Source of the DNA: Nannocystis bainbridge
GTDB lineage: Bacteria > Myxococcota_A > Polyangia > Nannocystales > Nannocystaceae
Reading direction: 5' to 3'
NCBI RefSeq assembly: GCF_028368995.1
Contig: NZ_JAQNDL010000001.1
Coordinates: 2,528,001 to 2,592,000 of the forward strand
Length of the DNA stretch: 64,000 bases
In this document: positions 2,758 through 63,507 of the stretch, piece after piece
Position numbering within the stretch: the stretch's first letter is position 1
Layout: every line of letters starts with the position of its first letter
Position numbers and translations under genes: made by a program
Notes under the pieces: generated by a model
Databases searched by the model: none
The model's input: the letters and a program-made list of their open reading frames with translations, nothing else
Told to the model about the DNA's origin: nothing

Positions 2758-2773
2758 GGACCGCCGGCGGGCG

Positions 2774-2843
2774 TGCCCGAACGAACATGCTCGAACGGAC
2801 ATGCCCCAGCGCGCATGTCCCGATGAACATGCTGCGAAGGACA
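2774..2843. repeat. Tiled array of five 14-bp TGYC-N6-RRCA palindromes
   Basis: tgcccgaacgaaca/tgctcgaacggaca/tgccccagcgcgca/tgtcccgatgaaca/tgctgcgaaggaca; CATG junctions at 2786, 2800, 2814, 2828; between convergent genes. Confidence 0.85.
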
Positions 2844-2862
2844 GGCTCGGCTCGCCCGCGGC

Positions 2863-15533: not shown

Positions 15534-15600
15534 CTCTCGGGACATGTCCTCTCCGACATGCCCTTTCTTACATGTCTTTGAAGGCATGTCCGATCGGACA
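15531..15600. repeat. Five-unit 14-bp array beginning at a stop codon
   Basis: tagctctcgggaca/tgtcctctccgaca/tgccctttcttaca/tgtctttgaaggca/tgtccgatcggaca. Confidence 0.85.
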
Positions 15601-17923: not shown

Positions 17924-20668
17924 ATGAGGGTCATGCCCGTCCAGCCCGGGATCGACGGCGACGCCGACACTCTCGGCGCCGACCGGTTGTCCGCGCCGTC
18001 GCCGCCCGACCCGACGCGCGAGACCGACGGTGGCTCGTTCCTTAGCACCGAGGCCGCGGGCGAGCCCGGCGGCACCCGGCGCAGCCGCGGCCCCGCCACC
18101 GGCGACGAGATCGGCGACTTCACGCTCGAGCGGCGCCTCGGCGAGGGCGGCATGGGCGTGGTGTTCGCCGCGTGGAGCCACAAGCTGGCCCGCCGGGTCG
18201 CCATCAAGATCCCGACCCGCAGCCTCGACGAGGTCGCGCGCGCCCGCATCGTCCGCGAGGCCCAGAGCCTGGCCCAGGTCGACCACCCCCACGTGGTCCG
18301 CGTGTACGAGATCGGCGAGGAGGGCGAGAACCTCTTCATCGCCATGGAGCTGGTGGAGGGCGTCACCCTCCGCAGATGGCTGACGGAGGCGCCGCGCGGC
18401 TGGCGGGAGATCGTCCAGATGTACCTGCAGGCCGGCCACGGGCTGGCGGCGGCGCATCACCAGGGGCTGCTGCACCGCGACTTCAAGCCGAGCAACATCC
18501 TGGTCGACGGCGAGGGTCGCGTGCGCCTGATCGACTTCGGCCTCGCGCGCATGCGCGACTCGAGCCGCGACATCGCGGCGACGGTCGACGGCGACGAGCC
18601 CTCGGGCCCCGAGTTCGTGCTGACGAGCCGCGCCGGCACGCCGCGCTACATGGCGCCCGAGGTCTACGACACCGGCGCGACGGTCGACGCGCGCAGCGAC
18701 CAGTACTCGTTCTGCGTCGCGCTGTGGGAGGCCCTGTTCGGCGAGCTGCCCGACTGGCGCCGCTCGGCCCCGCAGCCGAAGACGGTGCCGCCGTGGCTGC
18801 TCGCGCTGCTCCGCCGCGGCCTGGCGCTCGACCGCGAGGGCCGGTTCCCGACCATGGACGCGCTGCTGGCCGAGCTGACCGCCGGCCTGCAGCCGCGCCG
18901 CCGCCGGCCGCTGGCGCTCGTGGCCCTCGCCGCGACCGTCGGGGCCGGGCTCGGCGCGGCGCTCCAGACCCTCGGCCCGGCCGAGGCCTGCGCCGAACCG
19001 GCCGCCCTCGCCGACGCGCTGTGGCCGGCCGACCAGCGCGCGGCCCTGCGAGAGTCTGGCCATTCGGTCATGTCCGTAGAGACATGGTTCTCGGAACATG
19101 TCCTCGAGTGGGCCGACGCCAGCGCCCAGGCCTGCCGGACCCGCGACGAGCTCGCCCGCGCCCGCGCGGCGACCTGCCTCGACGAGCGCGAGCAGGCGCT
19201 GCGCGCGGTCGCGTCCGCGCTGGTGGCCGCGCCCGCGGGCCCCGAGGGCGCACCGAAGCCCGGCTGGGACGGCCGCCTGGCCCTGTGGGACCGCGCGCTG
19301 CCGCCGGCCGCCGACTGCGTCGACCCGCGCCGCCTGGCCTTCACCGTCGATCCGCCGGTCCATGTCGACCTGTCCGAAACGACATGGCTCGAAGAACAGC
19401 TGCACCTGGGCGCCGCGCTCGCGCTCGCGGGCGACCCGGCGGCCGCGGCGGCGCGCCTGCACCCGGCCCGCGTGCGCGCCGAGCAGGCCGGTGATCGCTG
19501 GCGCCAGGCCCGGGCCGACCTCGCGCTCGGCGTCGCCGCCATGCACCGCGGCGACGAGACCGGCGCGCGCCGCCGCTTCGAGACCGCGGCCAGCGACGCC
19601 GGGGCCGTGGGCGACGATTTCCTGGCCGCCGACGCCTGGCGCTGGCTGGTGTTCGTCGACGCGGCCCGCGACCCCGACCCCGAGCACGCGCTGCTGCTGC
19701 TGCCGCACGCCGAGAGCGCGCTCTACCGCATCGGCCAGGCGACCGGGCCGCGCATGATCGACCTGCAGCTGTCGGCGGCGTGGGCCGAGCTGCGCCGCGG
19801 CGACCTCGACGCAGCCCACGCCCGCCTGGCCCGCGCGCTGCAACAAGGCAAGGCCGACGAGGCGCTGGCCGCACGGATCTTGCGACACCACGCAGAGCAG
19901 GCCCACCAGCGCGGGCAGTCGCTGCCGGCCGTCGATCTGGCCCGCCAGGCGCTGAGCCTGCAGCTGCGCCGCGAGGGCCCGGACTCGCGCGGCGTCGCCG
20001 ACACCCGCCAGAGCCTGGCCCGCTATCAGCTCGCCGCCGGTCAGTACGCCGAGGCCGAAGCCAACCTGCGCGCCGCCCTGGCCGTCGCCGCCGACGACCC
20101 CGACGCCCGCGAGCGCGCCAGCCTCGAGCTCGACCTCGCCGTCGTCCACTACACCCGCGACGACCTCGCCGCCGCGCGCGCGGCCGCCGATCGCGCCGCC
20201 TCGGCCTTCGCCGAGGTCGTCGATCCGCTGGCCGGTCGCGCCGACCGGATCGCGCTCGCCAAGCTCCGCGGTGACCTGTCCCTCGGGACAGACGATCGCG
20301 CCGCCGTGCGTCACTACGAGGTCGGCCTCGCGCTGGTCGCCGCCGGCCCCGCGCTGCCGGAGACGCGCGACAACGCGGTCGCCATGCGCGTCGGGCTCGC
20401 GGCCGCGCGCCGTCAGCTCGGCGACCTGCCGGGCGCCCTCGACGCCATGCGGCACGCGCTCGCCGACCTCGCGGGCGTCGCCGCGGACGTCGCCGCTTAC
20501 GCCCATGGCACCGCCGCCGAGCTCGATCTCGGGCGCGGCGCCAGGCGCGAGGCCGAGGCCCACTGTCGCCGCGCGCTCGCGCTGCTGCGCGACGACGACC
20601 CGATGGCCCGCGAGCTGCGCCAGCTGCTCGTACGGATCCGAGCCGCCGGCCCCGCGCGGCGAAAATAA
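17924..20668 (+). CDS. Ser/Thr protein kinase with TM segment and C-terminal TPRs
   Basis: LGEGGMGVV, VAIK, HRDFKPSN, DFGLA, GTPRYMAPE, DQYSF. Confidence 0.9.
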   Translation: MRVMPVQPGIDGDADTLGADRLSAPSPPDPTRETDGGSFLSTEAAGEPGGTRRSRGPATGDEIGDFTLERRLGEGGMGVVFAAWSHKLARRVAIKIPTRSLDEVARARIVREAQSLAQVDHPHVVRVYEIGEEGENLFIAMELVEGVTLRRWLTEAPRGWREIVQMYLQAGHGLAAAHHQGLLHRDFKPSNILVDGEGRVRLIDFGLARMRDSSRDIAATVDGDEPSGPEFVLTSRAGTPRYMAPEVYDTGATVDARSDQYSFCVALWEALFGELPDWRRSAPQPKTVPPWLLALLRRGLALDREGRFPTMDALLAELTAGLQPRRRRPLALVALAATVGAGLGAALQTLGPAEACAEPAALADALWPADQRAALRESGHSVMSVETWFSEHVLEWADASAQACRTRDELARARAATCLDEREQALRAVASALVAAPAGPEGAPKPGWDGRLALWDRALPPAADCVDPRRLAFTVDPPVHVDLSETTWLEEQLHLGAALALAGDPAAAAARLHPARVRAEQAGDRWRQARADLALGVAAMHRGDETGARRRFETAASDAGAVGDDFLAADAWRWLVFVDAARDPDPEHALLLLPHAESALYRIGQATGPRMIDLQLSAAWAELRRGDLDAAHARLARALQQGKADEALAARILRHHAEQAHQRGQSLPAVDLARQALSLQLRREGPDSRGVADTRQSLARYQLAAGQYAEAEANLRAALAVAADDPDARERASLELDLAVVHYTRDDLAAARAAADRAASAFAEVVDPLAGRADRIALAKLRGDLSLGTDDRAAVRHYEVGLALVAAGPALPETRDNAVAMRVGLAAARRQLGDLPGALDAMRHALADLAGVAADVAAYAHGTAAELDLGRGARREAEAHCRRALALLRDDDPMARELRQLLVRIRAAGPARRK

Positions 20669-24352: not shown

Positions 24353-26044
24353 ATGAGCGCCCGTATCGTCGCCGCCCGGCCGTGCGCGCCGCAGTCCGCC
24401 GCAGCGCCCCCGTCGCGCCGTGAAGCCGACCCGCCGGGCGCCCCGCAGCCCGCCCTGCCCCGCACGCGCACGCGGCCGCGCCGGCGAGCGAGCCCACCGA
24501 GCAGCTCGCCGGCCGTCTTGCTGGCCGCCCTCGCGCTCGCGCCCGCCTGCTTCAGCGACGACGGCTACCACCCGGCCGGCGCCACCGCGCTCACCACCGA
24601 CGCCGACGCCACCAGCACCACGACCACCACCGGCACCACCGGCCCCGAGCCGCCCGCGACCACCACCAGCACCACCGGCGAGCCGGCGCCGGTGTGCGGC
24701 GACGGCGTCGTCGACCCCGACGAGGACTGCGACGACGGCAATCGCGACGACGGCGACGCCTGCCTCGCGACCTGCGTCGCGGCCGGCTGCGGCGACGGCG
24801 AGGTGTGGCTCGGCGTCGAGGCCTGCGACCAGGGCGCGGCCAACCATCCGACCGCGCCCGACACCTGCAGGCCGACCTGCGAGCTGCCCGCGTGCGGCGA
24901 CGGCGGCCTCTACGTCGGCCCGCTCGGCCCCGACATCGAGGTGCCCACCGGCGAGGAGGCGATCGGCGACGGCGACGACGCCCCGCGGATCCTCGGCGCC
25001 GCCGCCGACGGCAGCTTCGTCGTCGCCTGGCGCGTCACCAACATCGTCGCCAGGGTCCAGGCCCGCCGCGTCGATCCGTCCGGCGAGCCGCTCGGCGAGG
25101 TGATCGAGCTGGTCGAGCAGCCGTTCCTGCAGGTCCGCGACCCCGTCGTCGCGGCCCTGCCGAACGGCGACTTCGCGGTCGCCTGGCAGTCGCAGTTCGA
25201 GGATCCGCAGCTGCTGGTCCGCGGCGTCGCGGCCGACGAGCTCGCGCCCGCCTTCAAGCTCACCAACCGCGTCGCCGCCTCGCCCGCGCTCGCCCTCGAT
25301 CCGTCCGGCGCCCTGATCGCGGCCTACCGCGCCGGCGGCACCAAGCAGACGACCCAGATCTACCTGCGCCGCTTCCCGCTGTTCACCGAGTCCGGGAGCC
25401 CGGACGAGCAGGCGATCAGCGAGCACACCGCGGGCGCCGCCGGCTCGCCGACGATCGCGGTCCACCCCGACGGCAGCTTCCTGGTGGCCTGGAGCGACCC
25501 CGAGGGCGCGATCGTCTATCGCCGCTTCACCCCCGACCTGGTCGCCGGGCCGCTGGTCCCCACCGGCCTCCACGTCGGCGGCGGCACCAGCAACAGCGCC
25601 CTGCCGTGGATCGGCGCCGCCTTCCAGCCGACCACCGGGACCGCCGTGATCGCCGGCCGCGACCCCGACGACAGGCTCGTGCTGCAGCAGTTCGACCCCG
25701 GCGACCTCGCCCGCGGCCGCGTCCAGGTCGACGACCTGGACGCTTTGTACATCCCCTTCGTCGACGTCGCCAGCGACCCGTGGGGCAACCTCGCCGTCGC
25801 CTGGTCGACCTGCGGCGGGCCCGAGGAGGTCGAGCCGAATTGCGCCGACCTGGCCTCGGTGTCCTCGTTCCGGTGGTTCTACGCCGACCTGACCCCGCAG
25901 GGCCCGGCCGCCGTGGTCACCACCCGCGAGGGCATGCCCCACCCGCTGTCGCTCGCCGTCGCCGCCACCGGCGCCGCCGCGGTCGCCCGCGTCGAGGACA
26001 ACAAGGTCCTCCTCAACATGTCCCCGGTGCAATGTCCTCCATGA
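24353..26044 (+). CDS. myxobacterial Cys-rich (DUF4215-type) lipoprotein, paralogue 1
   Basis: LAPA-C lipobox, Thr-rich linker, CGDGVVDPDEDCDDGN repeats; true start uncertain. Confidence 0.8.
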   Translation: MSARIVAARPCAPQSAAAPPSRREADPPGAPQPALPRTRTRPRRRASPPSSSPAVLLAALALAPACFSDDGYHPAGATALTTDADATSTTTTTGTTGPEPPATTTSTTGEPAPVCGDGVVDPDEDCDDGNRDDGDACLATCVAAGCGDGEVWLGVEACDQGAANHPTAPDTCRPTCELPACGDGGLYVGPLGPDIEVPTGEEAIGDGDDAPRILGAAADGSFVVAWRVTNIVARVQARRVDPSGEPLGEVIELVEQPFLQVRDPVVAALPNGDFAVAWQSQFEDPQLLVRGVAADELAPAFKLTNRVAASPALALDPSGALIAAYRAGGTKQTTQIYLRRFPLFTESGSPDEQAISEHTAGAAGSPTIAVHPDGSFLVAWSDPEGAIVYRRFTPDLVAGPLVPTGLHVGGGTSNSALPWIGAAFQPTTGTAVIAGRDPDDRLVLQQFDPGDLARGRVQVDDLDALYIPFVDVASDPWGNLAVAWSTCGGPEEVEPNCADLASVSSFRWFYADLTPQGPAAVVTTREGMPHPLSLAVAATGAAAVARVEDNKVLLNMSPVQCPP

Positions 26045-26102
26045 CATGTTCTCGTGGACATGTCGCATGGAACATGCGCCGATAGACATGTCTTAAAGGG
26101 CA
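26005..26102. repeat. Seven-unit 14-bp array crossing a stop codon
   Basis: ggtcctcctcaaca/tgtccccggtgcaa/tgtcctccatgaca/tgttctcgtggaca/tgtcgcatggaaca/tgcgccgatagaca/tgtcttaaagggca. Confidence 0.85.
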
Positions 26103-26257
26103 TAACGTGGCGCTCGCTGCTGACTTCGACGCCCCACGGCCCCGCCTGACCTCACGAGCCGCCGAGCCTGCGGCCCACATGCCCCAAAGAACATGTCCCT
26201 CTCGCCACACGTGCGCGCCCGCAGACACGCGGGGCGGACCGCGGTAGACTGATTCGC

Positions 26258-34365: not shown

Positions 34366-34449
34366 TGGTCGAAGCGACATGCGCTTTCCAACATGCCCTC
34401 GGAGACATGCCCTCTCGGACATGCTCTTCGGGACATTCCCGCGAGGACA
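34366..34449. repeat. Six-unit 14-bp array between convergent genes
   Basis: tggtcgaagcgaca/tgcgctttccaaca/tgccctcggagaca/tgccctctcggaca/tgctcttcgggaca/ttcccgcgaggaca. Confidence 0.85.
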
Positions 34450-34455
34450 TGTCCG

Positions 34456-42865: not shown

Positions 42866-45586
42866 TCATAGCCGATCGAAGCGCAGGTCAACCTCGCGGG
42901 TCACGTGGCCGCGGCGGACGTCGGTCTGTAAAGTCACGGGTGCGAGCAGCTCCGCGAGCCCCGGCGGTGGGATCGCCTCGACCGTGACGTCGCCCTCCGG
43001 CAAGCCCTCCACCGACCAGCGCCCTTCGGTGTCGCTGGTGGTCTCGGCCAGCACGGTGTTGCCGTCGCGCGTGCGCACCGAGAGGCGCGCGCCGGCGACC
43101 GGCTCGCCGCGCTCGTCGGTGACCTCGCCGTCGAGGCCCGCAGCCTCGTCGAGGTCGACCACCAGCGTGGCCGGGGCGCCGCCCGCAGGCCGCGCGACCG
43201 AGTTGCCCACGCCGACCCAGCCGGGCGCCTCGACGCGCACGCGCACCCGCTCGCGCGCCAGCCGGGCGGCCCGCACCTCGCCGGCCTCGTCGGCGGCCCA
43301 CACCTGGCCGTCGACCTCGACGCGCGCGCCGGCGATCGGGTCGCCGCTGCCGGCGGCGCGCACGACGACCTCGAGCGACCAGCCGCGCGCGAGCGTGAGC
43401 TCGACCGGCGCGTCGCCGCGGCTGGCCTTGGCGATCTTCAGGCGCTTGCTGGCGGGCGCGTATTCGGGGTGGTCGAGCTCGAGCGTGGCTGTCCCCGGGA
43501 CCAGGTGCGCCAGCTCGAACAGCCCGCGCGCGTCGGTCCACGTCACCTCGGTCGGGGCCAGCTCGCCCGCGGGCAGCAGCGTCACCCGCACGCCGGCGAT
43601 CGGCTGGTCGTTGCCATCGCGAACCCGGCCCTCGAGCCCGCCCTCGGCCGGTTGCAGGACCTGCTCGATCGCCGTCGCTCGCCCCTCGAGATCGACCTCG
43701 AGCACCGCCGGCACCATGCCCGCCGCGCGGATGATGATCCGCTGCTTGCCGCGGCGATGGCCCGCGCTCCACACGCCGAAGCCGTCGCTCGTCACCACCG
43801 AGCCGTCGGCCAGCTCGATGCGCGCGCCGGCGATCGGCTGGCGGTTGCCGTCGAGCACGCGCCCGCCGAGCGGCACGCCCTGGCCCAGCGTCAGCACCAC
43901 CCCGTCCTCGCGCTCGCCCGGCGTGAGGTCGACGACCACCGTCGCCGAGCCCGCGTGGTCGCCATGGACCGCGCGCAGGCGGTAGCGCCCGGGCATCAAC
44001 GTCTCGAGCGAGAAGTCGCCGCGCTCGTCGGTCTCGGCCCAGGTGCCGACCGTCTCGTCGTCGCCGACCAGCGGGATCGGGGGCACCGCCCCGCGCGTGA
44101 CCCCGAGGCTGCCGCCCCGCTGCAGCGCGGTGAACGTGCGCGCGCGGATCATCGCCTCGCCGGGGCTGTAGAGCGTGTCGGCGTCGACGAAGATCCTGGC
44201 CTCGGGGACAGGTCGCCCGTCGTCGTCGATCACCGTGCCGGCGATCCGGCCCGGGCGCACCAGCGTCAACGTCTGCCGCGCCGGCGCCTCCTTGCCGACG
44301 TCGACGGACAGTGACTCCGAGGGCAAGTAACCGTCGGCGTCGGCGCGCACCACGTAGGGGCCGGGCACCACCGGACCGAGGTCGGCCTGCCCGCGGTCGT
44401 CGGCCTCGGCGATCTGCTGCAACAGACCGACGCTGGCGTAGCCGAGGGTCACGCGGGCGCGCGGCACCGGCGAGCCGTCGGGGCTGACGACCTCCACCGG
44501 CACGCGCTGGGCGGCGATCAGCGCCAGGCTGACGTGCGCGCCGGGGCTCAGGTTCTCGAGCGGGATCGAGGCGTACTCCTGCTCGCCGGGCCGCTCGGCC
44601 CGCACCTGCGCGACCAGCCCGTAGACCCCGTCGACCAGGTCGCCGAACAAAAACTCGCCGCCCGCGCCGGCCGGCTGCACGAGCGGCGGCCACAGCGACG
44701 AGCCCTCGAGCCGCACCTGCGCGCGGCTCACCAGCGCCGGGTCGCCGACCACCGCCCCGCCGAGGTCCTGCAGCGAGTCGACCACGATCACCACCCCGGC
44801 CTCGGGCGCGAACGCCTCGATCACCGACAGCGCGAACCCTTGCCCGGTCGCGCGCAGGCGCAGCGGCCCGGCCGGCACCGTGTCGAGCACGAACGCCCCG
44901 GCCGCGTCGCTGTCGATCCGCCACGGCTCCGGCTCGCCGAGGCCCGGCAGCGGCGTCGCCTCGATGCGCACCCCGACCACCGGCTCGCCGCGCCGATCGA
45001 TCACCTGTCCCTTGAGCCAGGAAGCCGGCCCGAGCGCCAGCGTCGGCAGCACCGCCTCCGTGCCCGCCTGCGCCGGCGCCGTCAGCACCCCGCGCAGGTG
45101 GCCTGGCACCAGCACCTCGATCGTCACCGCCGCCGCCGGTCCGGCCGGCAGCGCCAGGTCGAGCGCGAACTGGCCCTCGGCGTCGCAGCGCGCCTCGGCC
45201 AGCAGGAACCCGCCGCGCCACGCCCGCGCCTTGCACTCGCGCGGCGGCGCCAGCGGCACCGGCGGCCCCTCGGCGCCTGGCTCTTTGTCCAGGGCGCTTG
45301 GGTCATAGCCTTCAGGACCGGTCTCATCGGACATGTCCTTCGCGCCAGGAGCTTCGACCGGCGCCGGCGAGGCCACCCCGACCTCGACCATCACCTTGCC
45401 GCGCACGCGCGCCGGCGGGGCGGTCTCGTCCGGCGCCGCGGTCGCCTCGGCGGGCGGCTCGCCCGTCCCGCCCGCGACCTCGCCGACCTGCCCCGCCTCG
45501 CGCCCGCAGCCGCGCAGGAGCAGCCCGCCGGTGGCCGCGAGGGCGACGACCAGGCCGACGAGCAGCGCCTGGGTTCGTCGCTGCAT
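42866..45586 (-). CDS. carboxypeptidase-regulatory-like repeat surface protein
   Basis: repeated GxVxDxxGxPVxGARV..TDxxGxF..L..G.Y modules; N-terminal TM. Confidence 0.85.
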   Translation of the reverse strand: MQRRTQALLVGLVVALAATGGLLLRGCGREAGQVGEVAGGTGEPPAEATAAPDETAPPARVRGKVMVEVGVASPAPVEAPGAKDMSDETGPEGYDPSALDKEPGAEGPPVPLAPPRECKARAWRGGFLLAEARCDAEGQFALDLALPAGPAAAVTIEVLVPGHLRGVLTAPAQAGTEAVLPTLALGPASWLKGQVIDRRGEPVVGVRIEATPLPGLGEPEPWRIDSDAAGAFVLDTVPAGPLRLRATGQGFALSVIEAFAPEAGVVIVVDSLQDLGGAVVGDPALVSRAQVRLEGSSLWPPLVQPAGAGGEFLFGDLVDGVYGLVAQVRAERPGEQEYASIPLENLSPGAHVSLALIAAQRVPVEVVSPDGSPVPRARVTLGYASVGLLQQIAEADDRGQADLGPVVPGPYVVRADADGYLPSESLSVDVGKEAPARQTLTLVRPGRIAGTVIDDDGRPVPEARIFVDADTLYSPGEAMIRARTFTALQRGGSLGVTRGAVPPIPLVGDDETVGTWAETDERGDFSLETLMPGRYRLRAVHGDHAGSATVVVDLTPGEREDGVVLTLGQGVPLGGRVLDGNRQPIAGARIELADGSVVTSDGFGVWSAGHRRGKQRIIIRAAGMVPAVLEVDLEGRATAIEQVLQPAEGGLEGRVRDGNDQPIAGVRVTLLPAGELAPTEVTWTDARGLFELAHLVPGTATLELDHPEYAPASKRLKIAKASRGDAPVELTLARGWSLEVVVRAAGSGDPIAGARVEVDGQVWAADEAGEVRAARLARERVRVRVEAPGWVGVGNSVARPAGGAPATLVVDLDEAAGLDGEVTDERGEPVAGARLSVRTRDGNTVLAETTSDTEGRWSVEGLPEGDVTVEAIPPPGLAELLAPVTLQTDVRRGHVTREVDLRFDRL

Positions 45587-45981
45587 CAGCCGACGGCGAT
45601 CGCGTCGATCTCGACCAGCACGTCCTTCGGCAGCGTCGCCACCGCCACGGTCGAGCGGGCCGGGCGGTGGTCGCCGAAGTGGCGCCCGTAGATCTCGTTG
45701 ACCGCCGCGAAGTCCTTCATGTCCTTGAGGAAGATCCCGCAGCGCACGACGCTGGCGAAGTCCATGCCCGCGGCGCGGAGGATCGCGGCGAGGTTCAGCA
45801 TCACCCGCTCGGTCTGCGCCTTGATGTCGCCGTCGACGATCTGCATCGTCTGCGGGTCGAGCGGGATCTGGCCGGCGGTGTAGAGCGTGCGACCGCCGCT
45901 GACGACGATCCCCTGGCTGTACGGGCCGATCGCGGCCGGTGCGTCGGGGGTGGAGATGACCGTGCGGACGACGTCAGACAT
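45586..45981 (-). CDS. ridA: RidA family reactive intermediate deaminase
   Basis: APAAIGPYSQ, GQIPLDP, FAAVNEIY, PARSTVAVATLPKDVLVEIDAIA. Confidence 0.92.
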   Translation of the reverse strand: MSDVVRTVISTPDAPAAIGPYSQGIVVSGGRTLYTAGQIPLDPQTMQIVDGDIKAQTERVMLNLAAILRAAGMDFASVVRCGIFLKDMKDFAAVNEIYGRHFGDHRPARSTVAVATLPKDVLVEIDAIAVG

Positions 45982-46114
45982 GGCGGTTAGGGTCGCCGAT
46001 GCCCGGGGCTGGGGCAAGGGCGTTGCGAGCCGCGGCGCCGACCCAATACGAGGAGCGCGCCGGACCGAAGTCTGGCGCGCTCGACTCACGCTTGCTGCTG
46101 GGGCAGCCGGAGGC

Positions 46115-46390
46115 TCAGGCCGCCGGAGCGTTCTTCTTGTTGAACGCGAGACGCACGCGCGACGCGTAGCGCGACGCGGTGTTGCGGTGGATCACGCCCT
46201 TGCTGGCGGCCTTGCCGATCGCCTGCAGCGCGAGCGGCAGGTTCTCCTGGGCGCCTTCGAGGTCACCACCCTCGAGGGCCTTGCGCAGCCGCTTCATGTA
46301 CGTCCGCATGGTGGACAGGTGAAATACATTACGCTCGCGCCGCTTGAGACGTTGACGGTTGCGCTTCTCTGCCGACTTGTGATTCGCCAC
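46115..46390 (-). CDS. rpsT: 30S ribosomal protein S20
   Basis: MANHKSAEKRNRQ...KAASKGVIHRNTASR. Confidence 0.96.
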   Translation of the reverse strand: MANHKSAEKRNRQRLKRRERNVFHLSTMRTYMKRLRKALEGGDLEGAQENLPLALQAIGKAASKGVIHRNTASRYASRVRLAFNKKNAPAA

Positions 46391-46565
46391 GGCTCTGGTC
46401 TTCCTGGAGGGGAGGGAGCTTATGGACCGGGGGCGCGGCCCTTGTCAAGGCGACGACCGGCTGCCACTGTAGGCCGCACGCGCCGCGGTGTGCGGGTCCT
46501 CCGTGCCTTTGAGCCCGAGTTTTGCTCGTGCACGGGCGTCCCGACGCGTGTAGACCCTCACAGCC

Positions 46566-47420
46566 ATGCCGACCTGCCCTTCGCTGCGCCCGTGGAGCCT
46601 GCTCGCCGCCTTTTTGGTCGGCTGCGTGTTCGTCCCGCCCCCGCCGCTGCCGGAGGAGATCGCTGCGATGGAGGCCGCCAAGGCCGCCCGCAAGTCGGGC
46701 CGCCCGTCGGCGCCGGGGGAGACCGAGGGCGAAGGAGGCGGCGGCGCCGAGATCGCCTTCAAGAAGGGCGACCCGGCCCCCGAGGGCCTCTCGCCGGCGC
46801 AGCTGCGGGCCTACAACGTCGCCCAGGGCGACCCGGAATCCGGCGAGTTCACCCTCGAAGAGGCCCTCGCCGGCCTGCCCGGCCGCCCCGACGACGCGCT
46901 GTGGGCCCTCCTCAAGACCCCGCGCGGCGTCCTCGAGTGTGAGCTGCACGTCGAGACCACGCCGAAGACCATCGCCAACTTCGTCGGCCTCGCCCGCGGT
47001 CTGCGCCCCTGGTACGACAAGGCCTCGGACGCGTGGGTCAAGCGGCCCTACTACGACAACTCGACCTTCCACCGCGTGATCCCCGGCTTCATGGTCCAGG
47101 CCGGCGACCCGACCGGCACCGGCCTCGGCAACCCCGGCTACCTGATCGAGGACGAGATCGATCCGGAGCTGATCCACGACGCGCCCGGCGTGCTCAGCAT
47201 GGCCAACCGCGGCCCCAACACCGGCAGCGCCCAGTTCTTCATCACCCTCAACCCGACCCCGCACCTCGACGGCAAGCACACCGTGTTCGGCCACTGCAAC
47301 GACGCCGCCATGCGCCTGGCCGACGACATCGCCCTGGTCCCGCGCGACGCCAACGACAAGCCGCGCGACCCCGAGCTGCTGAACGCGATCGAGATCGTCC
47401 GCCGCCCGCGCGCCCGCTGA
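46566..47420 (+). CDS. cyclophilin-type peptidyl-prolyl isomerase, lipoprotein
   Basis: LVG-C lipobox; [43 protein letters not shown]. Confidence 0.92.
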
Positions 47421-47428
47421 CGCGCGGC

Positions 47429-47521
47429 TGTCCGCAAAGACATCCGACATGTCCCCCCAGACATGTCGTGACTCGGTGCATCAGGCGGTGACATGCCCCT
47501 GAAGACATGTCTCCGAAGCCA
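47429..47521. repeat. 14-bp palindrome cluster with phase slips
   Basis: units at 47429, 47450, 47494, 47508. Confidence 0.75.
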
Positions 47522-47623
47522 GGCGACCGCGCCGGCCGCCCGCCGCCCGGCTCTCGCGGACCGCCGCTGCGCCGTCCCCTGACCGGCGCCGCCGGCCCGC
47601 GACATCCTCTGCTATGGTGGGGC

Positions 47624-47929
47624 GTGCTCGTCGTCCATGTCCACGTCCACGTCGTGCCCGACCAGGTCGAGGCGTTCCGGGCCGCCACCGTCGCCAACGC
47701 GCGCGAGAGCGTGCGCGAGCCCGGCATCGCCCGCTTCGACGTCCTGCAGCAGGAGGGCGACGCGACCCGCTTCGTCCTCGTCGAGGTCTACCGCGACGAG
47801 GCCGCGCCCGCGCGCCACAAGGAGACCGCGCACTACCAGACCTGGCGCGACGCCGTCGCGCCGATGATGGCCAGCCCGCGCACCAGCGTCCGCTTCGCCA
47901 ACACCTTCCCGGCGGACGACGCGTGGTGA
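47624..47929 (+). CDS. antibiotic biosynthesis monooxygenase / LsrG-like protein
   Basis: [32 protein letters not shown]. Confidence 0.85.
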
Positions 47930-49086
47930 TCCCGTTCGAGCTCGCGACCGCCGCGCGCATCGTGTTCGGCGTCGGCGTCGCCGCCCAGGTCGGCCCGATC
48001 GCCGCCGAGCACGGGCGCCGCGCCCTCGTCGTCACCGGCCGCGACCCGGCCCGCGCCGAACCTGTCCTCGAGGCCATGCACGCCGCCGGCCTCGAGCTGT
48101 CCGTGTTCACCGTCGCCGGCGAGCCGACGGTCGCCGACGCCGAGCGCGGGGTCGTCGCCGCCCGCGCCTGCGCCTGCGACGTGGTGGTGGCGATCGGCGG
48201 CGGCAGCCCGCTCGACGCCGGCAAGGCGATCGCCGCCCTCGTGCGCAACCCCGGCCCGCCGCTCGACTACCTCGAGGTCGTCGGCCGCGGCCGCCCGCTC
48301 GTCCACGACCCGGTGCCCTTCGTCGCCGTGCCGACCACCGCCGGCACCGGCTCCGAGGTCACGCGCAACGCCGTGCTCGCGGCCGAGGACCAGCGCGTCA
48401 AGGTCAGCCTGCGCAGCCCGAAGATGCTGCCGCGCGCCGCGATCGTCGACCCCGCGCTGACGCTGTCGCTGCCGCCGGCCGTGACCGCCGATTGCGGCCT
48501 CGACGCCCTCACCCAGTTGATCGAGCCGTTCTTGTCGCGCAGGGCCAACCCGATCACCGACGCCCTGTGCCGCGACGGCATCGCTCGGGCCGCCCGGGCC
48601 CTGCCGCGTGCGTTCGCCGACGGCAGCGACCTCGAAGCCCGCAGCGACATGGCCCTCGCCAGCCTGCTCGGCGGCCTCGCCCTCGCCAACGCCGGCCTCG
48701 GGGCCGTGCACGGCTTCGCCGGCCCGATCGGCGGCGCCTTCCCCGACGCCCCGCACGGGGCCGTGTGCGCCCGCCTGCTGCCCGAGGCGCTGCGGATCAA
48801 CGCCCGCGCCCTGCGAGCCCGCGAGCCCACGAGCCCGGCCCTGGCCCGCTTCGACGAGGTCGCCCGCCTCGTCACCGGCGACCCCGCCGCCACGCTCGAC
48901 CACGCGGTCGACCACCTGCGCGCCCTGGTCGCGTCGCTGCAGATCCGCCCGCTCGCCGCGTTCGGCCTGCGCGCCGCCGACCTGCCCGCGCTCGTCGAGC
49001 GCGCCCGCCAGGCCAGCAGCATGAAGGCCAACCCGCTCGACCTCACCGACACCGAGCTGCACGAGGCCCTGGCAGCCGCGCTTTAA
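47926..49086 (+). CDS. iron-containing alcohol dehydrogenase
   Basis: [40 protein letters not shown]; GTGA overlap. Confidence 0.92.
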
Positions 49087-49160
49087 GACATGCCCCTAAC
49101 AGCATGCTCTTGAGGACATGCCCCATACGACATGCCCTTATCGACATGTCTTGACGAGCA
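49077..49160. repeat. 14-bp array (six slots) crossing the ADH stop, between convergent genes
   Basis: CATG at 49089, 49103, 49117, 49131, 49145, 49159. Confidence 0.88.
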
Positions 49161-49236
49161 TGTTGATGATCTGACCGACGAGCCAGCGACGAGCGACTCC
49201 GTCCTGGTCTCACGGGCCTGTCGCCTTGCCGGGCGC

Positions 49237-50166
49237 TCACTCGCACGGGTCTTCTTCACCGGCCGGCCCGCGCGGCGCGTGCAGCATCGACGACGGGATC
49301 GGCTTCGGCGGATCGTCGGCGTCGAAGCTGGCCAGCACCTGGACATGGGCGTCGCCGGAGAACTCGCTGTAGTCGACGCGCACATGATGGACCCCGGCCG
49401 CGAGCTGGGCCTCGCCGCCGCGCGACTGCGTCTTGCCGCGGGTGCGGTTGAGCACGATCAGGTCGCCGTCGACGTAGACCCGCGAGCCGTCGTCGGAGAT
49501 CGACTGGAAGATCGCCTTCGTCGGCGCGTCGAGGTGCAGGCAGCTGTCCCAGCGGACCGAGAACTGATCGGCCGGCACCTCGGCCATCGGCGCGTCGCGG
49601 CCCCAGTCGAAATCGACCGCGCGGTCGTAGCGGATCTGCCACTTCCCGCTGTGGTCGGCGCGGGCGTAGTAGGTCCCGCGCCACGGCTGCAGCGTCAGCG
49701 TCCACCACGGCCGCACCGCGATCAGCAGCACCACCGCCGCCGCCGCCGCGATCGCGGCCTTCCTGGTCCAGCCGGGCCGCCGCGCCCCCTCGCCGCGGGC
49801 CAGCGCGATCAGCCGCCCGAGCCGCCACGTGTGCGCCTCGACCTCCGCCCGCCCCAGCGGGAACTCGCGCGGCTCCCACGACGGCCGCGCCCGCTCGGCC
49901 TGCAGCGCCGGCAAAACCCGCCCCAGCTCCGTCACCGCTCGCGGACCGACGCCCGCCTGCAGCCGCGCCGGCAACCACCCGGGCAGATCGGCGATGTCCG
50001 CAGGAACATGTCCCTCGGGACAGACGCCGCGCGCCAGCGCCTCCCAGGCGCCGACGAGGTGGTGCGCCGCGCTGCGCGGCTCGCACGACGGGTCGACGGT
50101 CACCGCGCGCGCGGCCCGGTGGGCCGCCTCTGCCACGGTCAGAGCACGCTCGGTCTCGTTCATCAT
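49237..50166 (-). CDS. membrane-anchored PA14 domain protein
   Basis: VDFDWG, DQFSVRW, SDDGSRVYVDG, HHVRVDY. Confidence 0.82.
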   Translation of the reverse strand: MMNETERALTVAEAAHRAARAVTVDPSCEPRSAAHHLVGAWEALARGVCPEGHVPADIADLPGWLPARLQAGVGPRAVTELGRVLPALQAERARPSWEPREFPLGRAEVEAHTWRLGRLIALARGEGARRPGWTRKAAIAAAAAVVLLIAVRPWWTLTLQPWRGTYYARADHSGKWQIRYDRAVDFDWGRDAPMAEVPADQFSVRWDSCLHLDAPTKAIFQSISDDGSRVYVDGDLIVLNRTRGKTQSRGGEAQLAAGVHHVRVDYSEFSGDAHVQVLASFDADDPPKPIPSSMLHAPRGPAGEEDPCE

Positions 50167-52088
50167 CCGCTCACCTCCTGATCCTTCTCGCTGGTCCTCG
50201 GCGCGGCCTGACGCGCGGGCAGTCGCCGGCGCGCCCCCTTCTCGGTGCGGTGCGAGATCGGCCGGTCGCGCAGGTCCTTCACCACATTGAGCGCCCCGCC
50301 CTCGCGCTCGACCGCGAACAGCTGCGGCGCGTCGGGGAAGCGCGTGTCACAGCGGTCGCGCAGGTAGCCGACGCTGAAGTCGGAGTACTCCCCGCCGGGC
50401 CGGGTCCTGAACGAGCGGAAGTTGGCCGGCACGTGCAGCCGCATCGCCTTGCCCGAGAGACAGCCCGTAAAGTAGTACACCGAGTCGAGGTACGTCGCGC
50501 GCTCGTGGTCCCACAGCCACCGCTGCAGCTTCACCATCGCCTCGGGGTTGGTGTTGCCGTAATAGTCGGTGTCGTAGTGACCGATCGCCCCGGCCACCCC
50601 GCCGATCAGGCGATTGAAGTAGACCACCTGATGCGGGTGCAGCCGGATCGACTGCGCCAGCAGATCGGCCAGCAGCGCGCCTGTCAGCGCCCACGCGACC
50701 GCCCGCGCCCAGGATCGACGCAGCTGCACGATCAGCGCCTCGGTCGTCACCGCCGCCAGCGCCACCATCGGCGGGACCACGAACAGGAAGTGGCGATAGC
50801 CGTCGTACAGCGGCGAGCCCTTGTACACCGCGTAGATCGGCGGCACGAAGATCGCCATCCCCACCACCAGCAGCGCCAGCGCCGGTCGCACGTGCTCGGG
50901 CCGTGCGCCGCGGCGCATCAGCGCCACCACACCCCACAGCGTACCGATCGCCAGCATCCCCAGCACCAGCTCCGGCGTCTGAAACCCGAAGTAATGCGGC
51001 AGGTACTCCCAGCCGATCTCGTAGTTCCACACGTAACCGTCGGCGAACGGCATCTTGCGCTGGTGCGCGTCGAAGCTGCTCATGCGCCGCAGCGCCACGA
51101 ACGGCCGCGTCAGCGGGTCCAGCTGCGCCCACGGCCAGCCGATCAGCATCACCGCCCACGCCCCCGCGGTCACGCCCACGCCGATCGCCGCGACGCGTCG
51201 CACGTGGGCCGCCAGCGCCGCCCAGCTGCGCCGCAGCCACGCCGTGTGCGCGGCGAACAGACCCAGCGCCAGCGCGAGGAAGCAGAACAGGATCAGCCCG
51301 GCGATCCGCACGCTGAGCGCCAGGCCGATCGCCACCGCCAGCTTGGCCAGCGTCGCCCGTGACGGCCGCGGCAGCTCGGCGATCGTCACCACCATATAAT
51401 AAAGGCTCCACGCGTAGGCGACCGCGAACGGGCTGTCCTTCGGGTTGTTGAACATGTGGCCCCACCACACCGGGTGGAGCGTCAACATCACCAGCGTCAG
51501 CAGGCCCACGCGCGGGCCCCCGAGCGCACGCCCGAGCTTCCACGCGCCCATCAGCCCGAGCACGCCGACGAGCCCGCCGAGCAGGTGGATCGCGGTGAAA
51601 CCCTCCATCGGCGCCGCGATCGCGCGGAACATCGCCCCCAGCAGGTCGTAGCCGCCGCCGTAGAGATAGTTGATGCGGTACGTCAGCGCGCCGGTGTCGT
51701 TGAAACCCGACGTGTACCACTGGGCGATCCGCGACCCGTACGCGAGGTGCCACGCCTCGTCCCACGTGACCCCGTACTGGCGGAACGTCGCCAGCACCGT
51801 GACCAGCGTGCCCGCGAGCCACACCCACGCGACGCGGTCGTACGCCCGCGCGGACGCGGCCGGGTTCGACGGTAACAGGCGCGACAGCAACGACGATGAT
51901 GCGTGGGACAAGCGGCCCGACCTCGAAAGCGCCCCCAGTGTGGCGAGCGCCGCGGCCGGTTCAAGCGATCGAACAATTGTTCGCGAGCTCGCGACCTCCG
52001 GGTCACGCGCGAGGCCGTCGGTCGCGACGGCGACGCAGCGCTGTGACAGGTCCCGCGCGCCCAGTGCTCCCGCGATCTTCCATCCCAC
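50163..52088 (-). CDS. GT-C glycosyltransferase (PMT/ArnT-like) membrane protein
   Basis: YGVTWDE, FNNPKDSPFA, LYDGYRHFLF, YFNRLIGG..YDTDYYG; many TMs; real start probably downstream of 52088. Confidence 0.78.
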   Translation of the reverse strand: MGWKIAGALGARDLSQRCVAVATDGLARDPEVASSRTIVRSLEPAAALATLGALSRSGRLSHASSSLLSRLLPSNPAASARAYDRVAWVWLAGTLVTVLATFRQYGVTWDEAWHLAYGSRIAQWYTSGFNDTGALTYRINYLYGGGYDLLGAMFRAIAAPMEGFTAIHLLGGLVGVLGLMGAWKLGRALGGPRVGLLTLVMLTLHPVWWGHMFNNPKDSPFAVAYAWSLYYMVVTIAELPRPSRATLAKLAVAIGLALSVRIAGLILFCFLALALGLFAAHTAWLRRSWAALAAHVRRVAAIGVGVTAGAWAVMLIGWPWAQLDPLTRPFVALRRMSSFDAHQRKMPFADGYVWNYEIGWEYLPHYFGFQTPELVLGMLAIGTLWGVVALMRRGARPEHVRPALALLVVGMAIFVPPIYAVYKGSPLYDGYRHFLFVVPPMVALAAVTTEALIVQLRRSWARAVAWALTGALLADLLAQSIRLHPHQVVYFNRLIGGVAGAIGHYDTDYYGNTNPEAMVKLQRWLWDHERATYLDSVYYFTGCLSGKAMRLHVPANFRSFRTRPGGEYSDFSVGYLRDRCDTRFPDAPQLFAVEREGGALNVVKDLRDRPISHRTEKGARRRLPARQAAPRTSEKDQEVSG

Positions 52089-52352
52089 CCCTCCGGCGCT
52101 CCCCCGCCCCCACGCATCACTCGCGCCCCCGGCGCGCGGAAAGCTTCCGCATCACCCGATCCTCCGCGCCCACCACCACCTGTCTCAAGAGACATCCTCA
52201 TCCACATCTCCGCCCCCGAAGCCCCGCCGCCTCGCACTCCCTGTCCTTCAGGACATCTCGCTGACCTGCGAGTCCTCCCGGCCTCACCCTGCTCTCTGCC
52301 CGCAAACGCCCCCTCGGACCCTCGCGCCGCGCGTGTTAGGCTCGCCGCCGCC

Positions 52353-53222
52353 GTGACCGCCCCGACCGAAGCGCCGCCGGCCCTCGCCTCGACCGCCTGG
52401 CTCGCCCCCGGCCCGCTCCCGGCCCGCCGCGGCCTCGCCTTGCTCGCCTGGGGCCTCGCGCAGCCGCTGATCGGCCTGCGCGTCGTCGTGCGCGAGCCGG
52501 CCCTGCTGCGCGCCGCCGCCAGGCCCGTGCTGCTGTTCGCCGGCTTCTGCGTGCTCGTCGCCTTCATCGCCGAGGACGACGCCGCCGGACGGCTCGAGGT
52601 CTTCCTCACCACCCTCGTCACCCTCGCCCCGGCTCCGGTCATCCTGTTCGGCAAGACCTACCGCCGCCTCGCCGCCGCCGCCCGCGTCCCGCTCGGCCTG
52701 TCCCCTAGGACAGCCGAGATGCCACGGCTGTGGACCGCCATCGGCGACGCCGCCCGCCAGGCCGTCCTGCTCGCCATCGGCCTCGTCCCCGTCTGGCTCG
52801 CCTTCGAGCTCGTGCAGGCGTTCTGGCCCGACGCCGCGGACGGCTTCGTGTGGATCGCCTGGGCCGTCGGCGGCTTCTGGGCCCTGCACTGGATCGTCGT
52901 CGAGGCGCTCGACAACGGCCACACCGTCGACCCCGCCGCCGCCAAGGAGACGGCGCTGGTGCCCGTCGACCCGTGGTTCGTGCGCCTGTGGCAGTTCCCG
53001 CTGCTGCGCCGCTGCTCCGGCCTGCTGCGCCGGCTCAGTCGGCCCTGGCGGCGCGAGCTCGAGCTCGTCGCCCGCTACCCCGAGCTCGCGCTCGGCCTCG
53101 GCCTCGGCGTCGCCGCCATGATCGCCGTGCCGTTCGTCGCCCTGGTTTTCCGTCCGGCCGCGGTCGTCGCCGCGGTCCACGTGCTCGGCCGCGTCGAGCA
53201 GGCCGCCGCCCCGCCGCAGTGA
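52353..53222 (+). CDS. EI24/CysZ-like membrane protein
   Basis: multi-TM; VPFVALVFRPAAVVAA tail. Confidence 0.55.
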   Translation: MTAPTEAPPALASTAWLAPGPLPARRGLALLAWGLAQPLIGLRVVVREPALLRAAARPVLLFAGFCVLVAFIAEDDAAGRLEVFLTTLVTLAPAPVILFGKTYRRLAAAARVPLGLSPRTAEMPRLWTAIGDAARQAVLLAIGLVPVWLAFELVQAFWPDAADGFVWIAWAVGGFWALHWIVVEALDNGHTVDPAAAKETALVPVDPWFVRLWQFPLLRRCSGLLRRLSRPWRRELELVARYPELALGLGLGVAAMIAVPFVALVFRPAAVVAAVHVLGRVEQAAAPPQ

Positions 53223-53236
53223 GGCGCTTGCGAGCA

Positions 53237-53278
53237 TGTCCCCGGGGGCATGTCCCCGAGAACATGCCCCGAAGGTCA
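53237..53278. repeat. Three-unit 14-bp array between convergent genes
   Basis: tgtccccgggggca/tgtccccgagaaca/tgccccgaaggtca. Confidence 0.82.
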
Positions 53279-53289
53279 TGCGCGCCGCG

Positions 53290-53751
53290 TCAATCGGCGT
53301 GCTCGACCATGAACTCGAACGCCGCCGTGCACGGGAACTTCACCTTCGCCACGGCCGCCACCAGCGAGCACTGCGAGCCGTTGCAGACCACCCGCGCGTC
53401 GCGTCGCCCGCTGCCGACGGTCTCCGACGTGAAGCTGCCGACCTCGGTCGTCGTCACGTCGAGGGTCACGTCGGTCATGCTGATCTTCGCCCGCAGCAGG
53501 TGCTCCGGGCAGTCGAACTCCTTGCCCGACAGCTCGCACGCGAACACCCCCGTGGTGTTGTCCGCGAGGATGGTGAACGTGCCGCCGTTCTCGTTGGTGA
53601 GCACGAAGTCGCCGGACAGCATGTCGGTGATCGACCCGCAGCTCTCGTCGATCGTCTCGCCGGGGAGGAAGTTCCACCGCCCGTCGCGCGGCTCGAACTC
53701 GTTCCCGCAGCCGACCAGCAGCGACACCCCCAGAAACCACGCGCGCTTCAT
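53290..53751 (-). CDS. small Cys-containing lipoprotein
   Basis: MKRAWFLGVSLLVG-C lipobox. Confidence 0.72.
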   Translation of the reverse strand: MKRAWFLGVSLLVGCGNEFEPRDGRWNFLPGETIDESCGSITDMLSGDFVLTNENGGTFTILADNTTGVFACELSGKEFDCPEHLLRAKISMTDVTLDVTTTEVGSFTSETVGSGRRDARVVCNGSQCSLVAAVAKVKFPCTAAFEFMVEHAD

Positions 53752-53771
53752 GCCGCGCAGCCTAGCAGGCC

Positions 53772-54572
53772 TCAGCCCGGCTTGCGCATGAACACCAGGT
53801 ATTGGTACGGCAAAAGCTCGCGGTCGGTCCGCTCGTGGGTGAGCCCGAGCTTGGTCAGGTGCGCCGCCACCAGAGTGTCGTCGACCCGCATCGCCGCCGG
53901 CGGCCCCGGGGCGTCATCCGGCGCGTCTTTCTTGAAATCGACGACCACCAACAGCCCGCCGGGCTTCAGCGCCTCGCGGACCTTGCCGAAGAAGCGCGTC
54001 GGCTCGTCGATGTGATGATAGGTGTCGACCATCAGCGCCACGTCGAGGCCGGCAGGCAGCTTCGGATCGGCCACGTCGCCCTGGGCCGTGGTCACGTTGG
54101 CGAGCCCCTCCTTGGCCGCGCGCTCGCCGATCCATCGCACCATGCCGGGCTCGAGGTCGTTGGCGATCACACGCCCCTGGGGCACCGCCGCGGCCAGCCG
54201 CACCGTGAAGTAACCGGTGCCCGCGCCGAGGTCGGCCACCGTCATCGCCGGCGTCAACTGCAGCGCCGCGACCACCTCGTCCGGCTTCTGCCAGGCCGCG
54301 CGCTCGGGGCTGTCGAACTGGGCCGTCCACTCGGCCGGATCGGTGAAGCGATGGCCCTTGTGGTGCCCGCGCCCGCGGTGGTCGGAGTAGGCCTGCGCCT
54401 CCTCCTCGTGCTCCTGGGCGTGGAAGGCCCGCTCCTTGCTGGCCTCGTGGTCATGTCCCTCAGGACCTGCCTTCTCGGACATGTTCTTCGGGTCCTGTCC
54501 CGGGGACCCGGCGGGCGGCTTCCCGCACCCGACCAGGGCCCCGGCGATCGCGGCGATCACGGCGGTTCGCAT
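53772..54572 (-). CDS. class I SAM-dependent methyltransferase with lipoprotein signal
   Basis: MRTAVIAAIAGALVG-C; WQKPDEV; VADLGAGTGYF; DTYHHI; LKPGG. Confidence 0.85.
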   Translation of the reverse strand: MRTAVIAAIAGALVGCGKPPAGSPGQDPKNMSEKAGPEGHDHEASKERAFHAQEHEEEAQAYSDHRGRGHHKGHRFTDPAEWTAQFDSPERAAWQKPDEVVAALQLTPAMTVADLGAGTGYFTVRLAAAVPQGRVIANDLEPGMVRWIGERAAKEGLANVTTAQGDVADPKLPAGLDVALMVDTYHHIDEPTRFFGKVREALKPGGLLVVVDFKKDAPDDAPGPPAAMRVDDTLVAAHLTKLGLTHERTDRELLPYQYLVFMRKPG

Positions 54573-54586
54573 GCCCGACCATACCC

Positions 54587-55261: not shown

Positions 55262-55285
55262 GATGCCCCCTCGCCCGCCCGCTCA

Positions 55286-55425
55286 TGCCCCCGAGGACCT
55301 GTCCTCCGGGACACCCTCTCGAGGAGACCGCGGCCGCTCGTCGTTCGCCGCAATCTGTCCCCGAGGACATGCTCTTACGCACCGGTCCTTTCGCGCAGGT
55401 CCCGAAGGACATGCCCTCTCGACCA
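55286..55425. repeat. Ten-slot in-phase 14-bp array with a degenerate middle
   Basis: good units at 55286, 55300, 55356, 55398, 55412; all starts congruent mod 14. Confidence 0.75.
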
Positions 55426-55438
55426 GCCGCGCCAGCCA

Positions 55439-57954: not shown

Positions 57955-58022
57955 GCCGCTGCGCGAGTGTATCGCCGCAGGCCGCCGGAACACGCCCGCG
58001 GCACCCGTGGTATCCTCACTTC

Positions 58023-58604: not shown

Positions 58605-58755
58605 CCGCTCGCACACGCAAGCGCTGCGCGTGGCTCTCGACCTGTCCCCGAGGACATCCGGCGAGTCACTCTCCCCGCGCCGGAAGATTCGGCACTCGCC
58701 GCGACCCTTCGCAAGCTCCGCCCACGCGTGTCCGCGAGGACATTGGTCGCGTGAC

Positions 58756-63432
<4,677 letters not shown>

Positions 63433-63507
63433 GGGCCCGCGAGTGTACGCGCCCGCCCGCCGCCGCGCACGCTCACCGCGGACGGTCCAGCCCGGTAGCT
63501 GCGGCTC

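Follow-up and report, generated by a model that had tools for sequence, protein, structure and literature searches.

A genus-specific palindromic DNA array very probably underlies a peptide shared by unrelated Nannocystis proteins

High-copy extragenic palindromes of the REP, BIME and REPIN types cluster behind bacterial genes, form hairpins and often build composite arrays; REP elements carry a GTAG-like tetranucleotide beside an imperfect palindrome of 20–40 nucleotides (nt). Other described systems resemble these in part. The TRIT report describes a palindromic terminator motif of Mycobacterium that has 147 copies in M. tuberculosis and forms one longer hairpin, and its authors suspected that an extra factor binds the motif (PMC3152330). 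Rickettsia palindromic elements (RPEs), as presented in a review, are elements of ~150 base pairs (bp; 100–150 bp) with one conserved peptide open reading frame (ORF) and 44 insertions in R. conorii (PMC10969869). Uptake signal sequences (USS) sit 34.5–65% in ORFs, and their encoded tripeptides are ‘approximately doubled’ in proteomes, according to Findlay and Redfield (2009; PMC2817400). Here we analysed a 64,000-nt stretch of Nannocystis bainbridge (NZ_JAQNDL010000001.1, positions 2,528,001 to 2,592,000 of the forward strand; ‘the window’), in which a first-pass annotation had noticed five unrelated proteins with one common peptide. We find that these proteins carry arrays of a 14-bp palindrome and that the shared peptides are very probably a by-product of a genus-specific DNA element situated mainly at gene ends.

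All five sites proved to be copies of one DNA element. Its basic unit is the interrupted palindrome TGTCC-N4-GGACA, of which the source genome (11.05 Mb, 71.5% G+C, assessed as 90.5% complete) holds 1,987 exact copies; genome-wide, the same halves at the other spacings between N0 and N8 occur only 0–16 times. Because boxes follow one another directly, head to tail and in strict register, an array reads (GGACATGTCC-N4)n and each GGACA|TGTCC junction is itself the palindrome GGACATGTCC. This 10-mer is present in 956 copies, compared with 0–139 for each of 29 palindromes of equal composition, and the same word recurs 14, 28 and 42 nt to either side of its exact copies. When units were scored by their matches out of 10 to GGACATGTCC, gaps between matches of at least 8/10 measured 14 bp in 2,654 cases, 28 bp in 579 and 42 bp in 161, and every remaining gap of up to 60 bp was counted 2–49 times. 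The resulting catalogue comprises 4,366 arrays of at least two units and 1,910 of at least three, with a maximum of 12 units; about 40 of the catalogued arrays lie in the window. An alignment of the first-noticed sites had a common core around ACATGT, and each half of the motif, searched for loosely, gave seven window matches (shuffle means 0.84 and 0.11), a number that none of 100 shuffles attained in either search. Position tables around the 956 and 1,987 exact copies contained no conserved flank or element end beyond the neighbouring boxes. Spacer strand bias was weak, both at gene-end arrays (GAAG 93 versus CTTC 74) and in coding arrays (351 purine-rich versus 269 pyrimidine-rich spacers). 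Across the genome, identity between units was 6.76/10 at lag 3, 6.63 at lag 1 and 6.59 at lag 2, with 6.42 for random pairs; the lag-3 excess hints at a weak 42-bp super-period, equivalent to 14 codons and about four helical turns.

Genes were called with a crude custom codon-model finder (8,080 genes, 83% coding), and Pfam families lay in the called frame in 12 of 12 window genes and in 30 of 40 sampled genes. Predicted coding sequences (CDS) contain 487 arrays of at least three units at period 14, compared with 2–8 at the control periods 11, 13, 16 and 17 and 39–61 at 12, 15 and 18, which share codon periodicity; two-unit arrays in CDS number 1,095 at period 14 versus 109–207 at control periods. 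By a slightly different containment rule, 1,573 arrays of at least two units, about one-third of all such arrays, lie wholly within 1,144 of the 8,080 genes, and 483 arrays of at least three units lie wholly within 425. Their host proteins belong to unrelated Pfam families. A strong G+C signal at third codon positions (GC3) was found in the same coding frame on both flanks of 323 of the 483 arrays, and domain homology resumes in the same frame past the window arrays, as between the DEAD and Helicase_C lobes of Lhr. Lhr linkers extracted by anchored tblastn (14 loci, of which 13 were usable and one lacked the downstream anchor) were 27–444 nt long, and all 13 were multiples of three. Given this length rule and the same-frame homology on both sides, translation of in-gene arrays is obligatory.

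Because 14 is not a multiple of three, the reading frame shifts from each box to the next, through all three in turn, and three units (42 nt, 14 codons) yield the cycle G-H-V-x-x-D-M-S-x-x-T-C-P-x from any starting frame; the coding arrays that were listed read as this 14-residue cycle or as degenerate forms of it. The earlier proposal that GACATG, read in its three frames, gives DM, TC/TG and GH was correct, and follows from the 14-bp period. Array reading phases (134, 75 and 114) use all three frames, on both strands, and unit counts in CDS showed no preference for multiples of three or for three-unit (42-nt) arrays. The imprint extends to the proteome: DMS occurs 414 times, compared with 152 expected from composition and 88 for the reversed peptide; the corresponding numbers are 47, 4 and 3 for KDMS and 68, 9 and 8 for EDMS, and the pattern CP.GH occurs 31 times versus 3 for its reverse.

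Codon usage distinguishes the nucleotide motif from the residues that it encodes. The codons that the motif requires are rare in this genome (GGA 2.6% of Gly, CAT 9.6% of His, ACA 2.1% of Thr and TGT 9.6% of Cys), and the codon pairs GGA-CAT (284 observed versus 14.8 expected) and ACA-TGT (113 versus 5.2) are over-used ~20-fold. All 17 proteome matches to the pattern [DNG]M[SPL]x2-3[TA][CGA]PxG[HQY] retained 22–26 of 30 core bases, compared with 19.9 ± 1.4 when the same peptides were recoded with genomic codon usage; the peptide is therefore not one spelled by synonymous codons that destroy the DNA motif. The rare codons and this pattern search strongly support the view of the first-pass annotation that a DNA motif imprints the proteome and that unrelated proteins share an array-encoded peptide.

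Conservation between species gave the same separation. In four syntenic sister genomes, every window coding array that could be anchored was present at the same site, and third-codon A/T bases were identical in 175 of 202 comparisons in box cores versus 1,092 of 3,043 elsewhere in the same genes. A larger comparison, of a 474-kb syntenic block with a single sister genome (G010; 78% aligned), gave 147 of 176 (84%) in cores, 1,627 of 4,769 (34%) elsewhere and 38 of 62 in spacers (Fisher P = 5e-40). Seventy arrays contributed, of which 66 kept at least half of their sites, 47 kept all and 2 kept none. Per-position identity inside CDS was 0.83–0.98 in cores and 0.75–0.83 in spacers, with a background of 0.93, 0.94 and 0.86 at codon positions 1, 2 and 3; intergenic arrays gave 0.69–0.93 and 0.51–0.60. 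The nucleotide motif is thus kept within genes against GC3 bias: it is the 14-nt unit that governs conservation, rather than codon position, and residues encoded between the cores drift. This is a clean large-scale case in which a nucleotide motif, not the protein, sets residues in 1,144 of 8,080 predicted genes, and in which the motif is held across species against very strong GC3 codon bias. When proteins of this genus are annotated or searched for homologues, a peptide in common need not imply common ancestry or function.

Coding copies are a minority of a gene-end element, whose main location the first-pass annotation had overlooked. Unit density is 10-fold higher in intergenic DNA (4.66/kb) than in coding DNA (0.48/kb), and arrays of at least three units occupy 588 of 1,445 convergent, 573 of 4,415 tandem and 79 of 1,470 divergent intergenic regions. 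Within tandem regions they lie a median of 21 nt past the upstream stop and 160 nt before the next start. The higher intergenic density and the siting behind stops together identify the element as primarily a gene-end palindrome array. Hairpin capacity is evident at five of eight intergenic window arrays, where none of 200 dinucleotide shuffles folded as well; the other three were unremarkable. A terminator consensus scan of 44000–63999 returned eight sites, compared with 3.7 ± 2.0 in shuffles, one of the eight wholly inside an array, and Rfam at the gathering score had no match across the whole window.

This distribution bears on the idea that the shared peptide has a function as a protein motif (for example metal-binding, processing or secretion-linked) and that the likeness of the DNA is a consequence. 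In two of the five proteins first noticed, the peptide comes directly behind a signal peptide of the lipoprotein type, and H, C, M and D are all potential metal ligands. Outside genes, however, this DNA is 10-fold denser. Inside them, all three frames and both strands are used, the motif takes codons with a usage of 2–10% elsewhere, and conservation goes by the 14-nt unit, with the spacer-encoded residues drifting. The codon, frame and intergenic evidence excludes such a peptide, and we give that idea next to no credence.

The DNA element was found only in the genus of the window, most likely Nannocystis. An exact two-unit pattern matched 78 loci in a species-level genome collection, which by title were Nannocystis (64), Nannocystaceae (9), metagenome-assembled genomes of Myxococcales (2) and other (3); an exact three-unit pattern matched no locus in that collection and likewise has no exact copy in the source genome. 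Among 21 related genomes, the two-box pattern was present in 10 of 11 Nannocystis genomes, the source genome included, the single one without a match being 64% complete (G004), and in none of ten genomes from ten other genera; a reversed control pattern was absent from all 21. Among the matches listed, a literature search on the motif or on repeats in Nannocystis found no description of the element, and the papers containing the 10-mer were all on eukaryotes or p53. New features here are a 14-bp register that takes the reading through all three frames, the scale, and the retention of rare codons.

Each of the described systems matches this element in some respects. TRIT too is a genus-restricted conserved palindrome at gene termini, mostly bidirectional (PMC3152330), whereas Nannocystis has thousands of 14-bp boxes in phased arrays, about one-third of the arrays of at least two units being wholly in genes. 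RPEs are likewise palindromic and lie in frame in many unrelated genes, which then share an element-encoded peptide (PMC10969869); the Nannocystis unit differs in being 14 bp long, in forming arrays of 2–12 units read in three frames, and in having most of its copies between genes. USS and DNA uptake sequences (DUS) are also short clade-specific motifs with hundreds to thousands of coding and non-coding copies, enriched encoded peptides, codon-linked frame biases and a preference for less conserved positions (PMC2817400). The Nannocystis motif, in contrast, is a palindrome in a 14-bp register that takes three frames within one array, is 10-fold rarer per kb in genes and forces rare codons. The enrichment of some of its peptides is also stronger (KDMS, 47 versus 4 expected) than the approximate doubling reported for uptake sequences (PMC2817400).

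The uptake systems suggest a molecular drive as an explanation, in which an uptake or recombination machinery prefers box-bearing fragments, as for the DUS and USS of Neisseria and Pasteurellaceae. A genus-specific over-represented 10-mer that is conserved inside genes would suit such a drive; its palindromic form and strict 14-bp stacking are features that uptake drive would not explain. To our knowledge, known uptake sequences are neither palindromic nor stacked in register. Copies in both coding and non-coding DNA, enriched encoded peptides and a frame bias toward common codons agree with what the uptake-sequence study reports, although the coding share here is low (10-fold lower coding density), compared with 34.5–65% of USS in ORFs (PMC2817400). 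We consider an uptake-like drive quite improbable.

Another reading is a selfish or neutral repeat of the REP, REPIN or miniature inverted-repeat transposable element (MITE) kind, which would itself be functionless, would spread into gene ends and tolerant linkers, and would have passengers as its coding copies. Copy number is high, and the order of occupation (convergent, then tandem, then divergent regions) is that of safe havens. The Lhr inter-lobe linker is insertion-like, with 72–444 nt and 0–7 recognisable units in ten Nannocystis genomes versus 27–45 nt and no units in three genomes of other genera; intergenic arrays vary in unit number, and some are missing from orthologous spacers. 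With REP and REPIN sequences the units share high copy number, an extragenic location and palindromy, and they differ in lacking a conserved flanking tetranucleotide, in being much shorter, in their fixed 14-bp register and in being conserved inside genes. The transposase of a REPIN–RAYT system is also missing: the 90.5%-complete source genome has no match to PF01797 (IS200/IS605-like Y1, the RAYT-type transposase), whereas 6 of 14 control genomes gave matches when searched in this way. Against a selfish repeat more broadly, coding arrays occupy the same sites in every anchorable sister genome, their rare A/T bases at third positions survive at 84% versus 34% elsewhere, which a neutral passenger would not show, the position tables lack conserved element ends or flanks, and unit counts in CDS do not favour multiples of three. 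A selfish or neutral origin thus appears unlikely, although clearly less so than an uptake-like drive.

A by-product of a gene-end element remains the reading that we favour; that the motif is functional, what it does and how its copies originate are all inferred. An array just past a stop codon, most often one between convergent genes, could fold into a long composite hairpin, and would probably signal the gene end in both directions or bind a two-fold-symmetric reader; such a signal bears on how GC-rich bacteria without U-tract terminators mark gene ends. Within genes, boxes are translated in three frames by turns into a 14-residue periodic peptide per 42 nt, in which nucleotides rather than residues are conserved, rare codons spell the motif and spacer residues drift. 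That units agree with a common consensus and not with one another points to a sequence-specific reader. More tentatively, and with somewhat less than even confidence, we suggest that the box may be a working cis-element even inside genes, either as an array bound by a two-fold-symmetric protein or as an mRNA hairpin combined with a rare-codon pause. Three such dimers at a 14-bp pitch would cover 42 bp, equal to four helical turns and also to 14 codons. If boxes do work within genes, codon preference would give way to a nucleotide function, which would set part of the protein sequence in about one-seventh of the genes of the genus.

The first-pass annotation had placed the imprint mainly in disordered linkers. 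This description fits its five sites, all of which are outside Pfam stretches, and the Lhr linker; genome-wide the bias is only modest or weak. The coding share of arrays is 45% at two units, 5% at six and 11% at seven or more, and exact boxes in CDS number 64 in the Cys frame and 269 and 440 in the others. Domain positions were tallied by hand, with only the best stretch per Pfam family listed, for 40 random array-bearing genes drawn from the 323 high-confidence arrays (the window and genes of more than 1,300 aa omitted). Ten of these genes had no Pfam family; in the other 30, the array was clearly outside domains in 15, inside in 6, probably inside in 2 and at edges or uncertain in 7, so that 6–8 of 30 were inside domains compared with ~13 expected from 45% coverage (binomial P 0.013 for 7 or fewer). 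Against a linker bias, the flanks of arrays of at least four units differed only slightly in hydrophobic fraction (0.26–0.29 versus 0.29–0.31), and codon positions 1 and 2 in array flanks were only marginally less conserved (0.89–0.91 versus 0.92–0.93). We conclude that the bias of arrays toward tolerant protein regions is real but modest. Protein-level selection would decide which arrays survive, with coding arrays kept shorter, the Cys frame avoided, domains depleted and long arrays placed in linkers. For protein evolution, an array is a ready source of linker sequence.

Several observations weigh against the interpretation as a functional gene-end element with tolerated coding copies. The position tables have no T-run (U-tract) 3′ of arrays, and arrays, for all their hairpin potential, are therefore not classical intrinsic (Rho-independent) terminators. 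Adjacent units pair at 6.61/10 (Watson–Crick) versus 6.41/10 for random units, and with pairing of neighbours so near random, selection for pairing alone cannot explain the motif. Sense-strand asymmetry of G-U over A-C in tandem spacers is 54.6%, and arbitrary-strand controls deviate equally (46.8% and 42.9%). Flanks of three-unit arrays are not linker-like, their hydrophobic fraction being 0.31 versus 0.31 at random positions in the same proteins. The sister genomes are close relatives and mutually non-independent, and with gene calls this crude, precise counts for coding, intergenic and edge positions may change.

The individual coding arrays of the window illustrate the range of hosts. The sequences that the first-pass annotation gave for 45292–45347 and 54454–54509 were exactly as described, and all five of its peptides were reproduced by ORF translation. 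The gene for a surface protein with CarboxypepD_reg repeats (42866–45586, minus strand; 906 aa) has a three-unit array at 45301..45338 (7, 7 and 10 matches of 10) that reads KDMSDETGPEGYD at residues 83–95, in the stretch from the signal peptide to the first domain match, and is at the same site in four of four sister genomes. A lipoprotein-type methyltransferase gene (53772–54572, minus; 266 aa) carries a four-unit array at 54449..54500 (9, 7, 9 and 8), which occupies residues 25–41 between the signal peptide and the methyltransferase domain and reads ..KNMSEKAGPEGHD at residues 29–41. The signal peptide of this protein is lipoprotein-type (..ALVGC), and a His/Glu-rich stretch separates the array from the catalytic domain; an exported or membrane-anchored S-adenosylmethionine methyltransferase would be unusual.

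In a PA14-domain protein (49237–50166, minus), the three-unit array at 49990..50027 (8, 9 and 6) reads VCPEGHVPADI at residues 47–59, and the PA14 domain spans 164–277. The weakest of the five arrays has three units (6, 9 and 6) at 6088..6125 in a VIT/VWA protein gene (3930–7769, plus strand) and reads TGPDGHVVSDS at residues 720–732, after the VWA_3 stretch; it is retained in three of three anchorable sister genomes. A further three-unit array, at 19066..19103 in a Ser/Thr kinase gene (17933–20668, plus), reads SVMSVETWFSEHVL; its cores and rare codons ACA and CAT are constant in four of four sister genomes, and one spacer varies.

The Lhr gene (58756–63432, minus) has a seven-unit array at 62504..62597 (residues ~279–310; fold z −3.6), which encodes a peptide that reads KGMLKETAPEGHV and sits between the DEAD (26–214) and Helicase_C (346–447) lobes. 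An AlphaFold2 model built from a 14-sequence alignment had a predicted local distance difference test (pLDDT) score below 50 and no secondary structure over residues 260–335, with flanking lobes at ~85–97. Additional arrays lie at 59413..59450 (..RHVLSDMSEG.., between the WH3_Lhr and WH4_Lhr stretches) and at 60157..60194 (..IEHVLKNMAAEG..). Directly after the seven-unit array segment, residues ~311–335 (the 62504–62400 region) form a basic tail, ..PRKRGRAAAARPGKRRPAGGG.., which is similar in sister genomes. Outside the window, the source genome has a paralogous Lhr-like gene (1,458 aa; G000:C1 ~1405591–1406817) with a five-unit array that reads GHVLEAMPDQTCPEAHVLADSP (residue 243) and occupies the same inter-lobe linker position as the window Lhr array. 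The two arrays could descend from one old insertion common to both genes, or a single permissive site could have been occupied repeatedly.

Gene-end arrays of the window include a six-unit array at 49086..49165 between convergent genes, which begins at the stop codon of the Fe-ADH gene (47923–49086, plus; fold z −5.3, none of 200 shuffles as good), and a four-unit array at 53232..53283 with convergent genes on either side (fold z −5.6). Convergent genes also lie on either side of the six-unit array at 34375..34454 (fold z −3.3). A seven-unit array at 26014..26107 spans the 3′ end of the gene at 24518–26044 and continues beyond it (fold z −4.1), and a four-unit intergenic array at 15540..15591 starts 7 nt past the stop of the gene at 14166–15533 (fold z −4.4). 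The six-unit array at 2769..2848, between convergent genes, has no box array in the orthologous spacer of three sister genomes, and such absences mean that intergenic arrays turn over between species.

The spacers orthologous to 2769–2848 in these sister genomes (G010, G005 and G007) have another GC-rich sequence with recurring CGCGAGTC-like words, which may represent a second repeat family. In G001, the spacer orthologous to 24207–24244 (loci L103–L106) holds a different tandem repeat of ~70 nt in ~6–7 copies, together with a few degenerate boxes. Box arrays also lie near a carotenoid-type gene pair at 55439–57954 (minus), in which SQS_PSY (phytoene/squalene synthase) and amine-oxidase-type desaturase genes are adjacent: one region, 55281–55416, is just downstream of the pair, and another array, at 56443–56480, lies over the gene junction.

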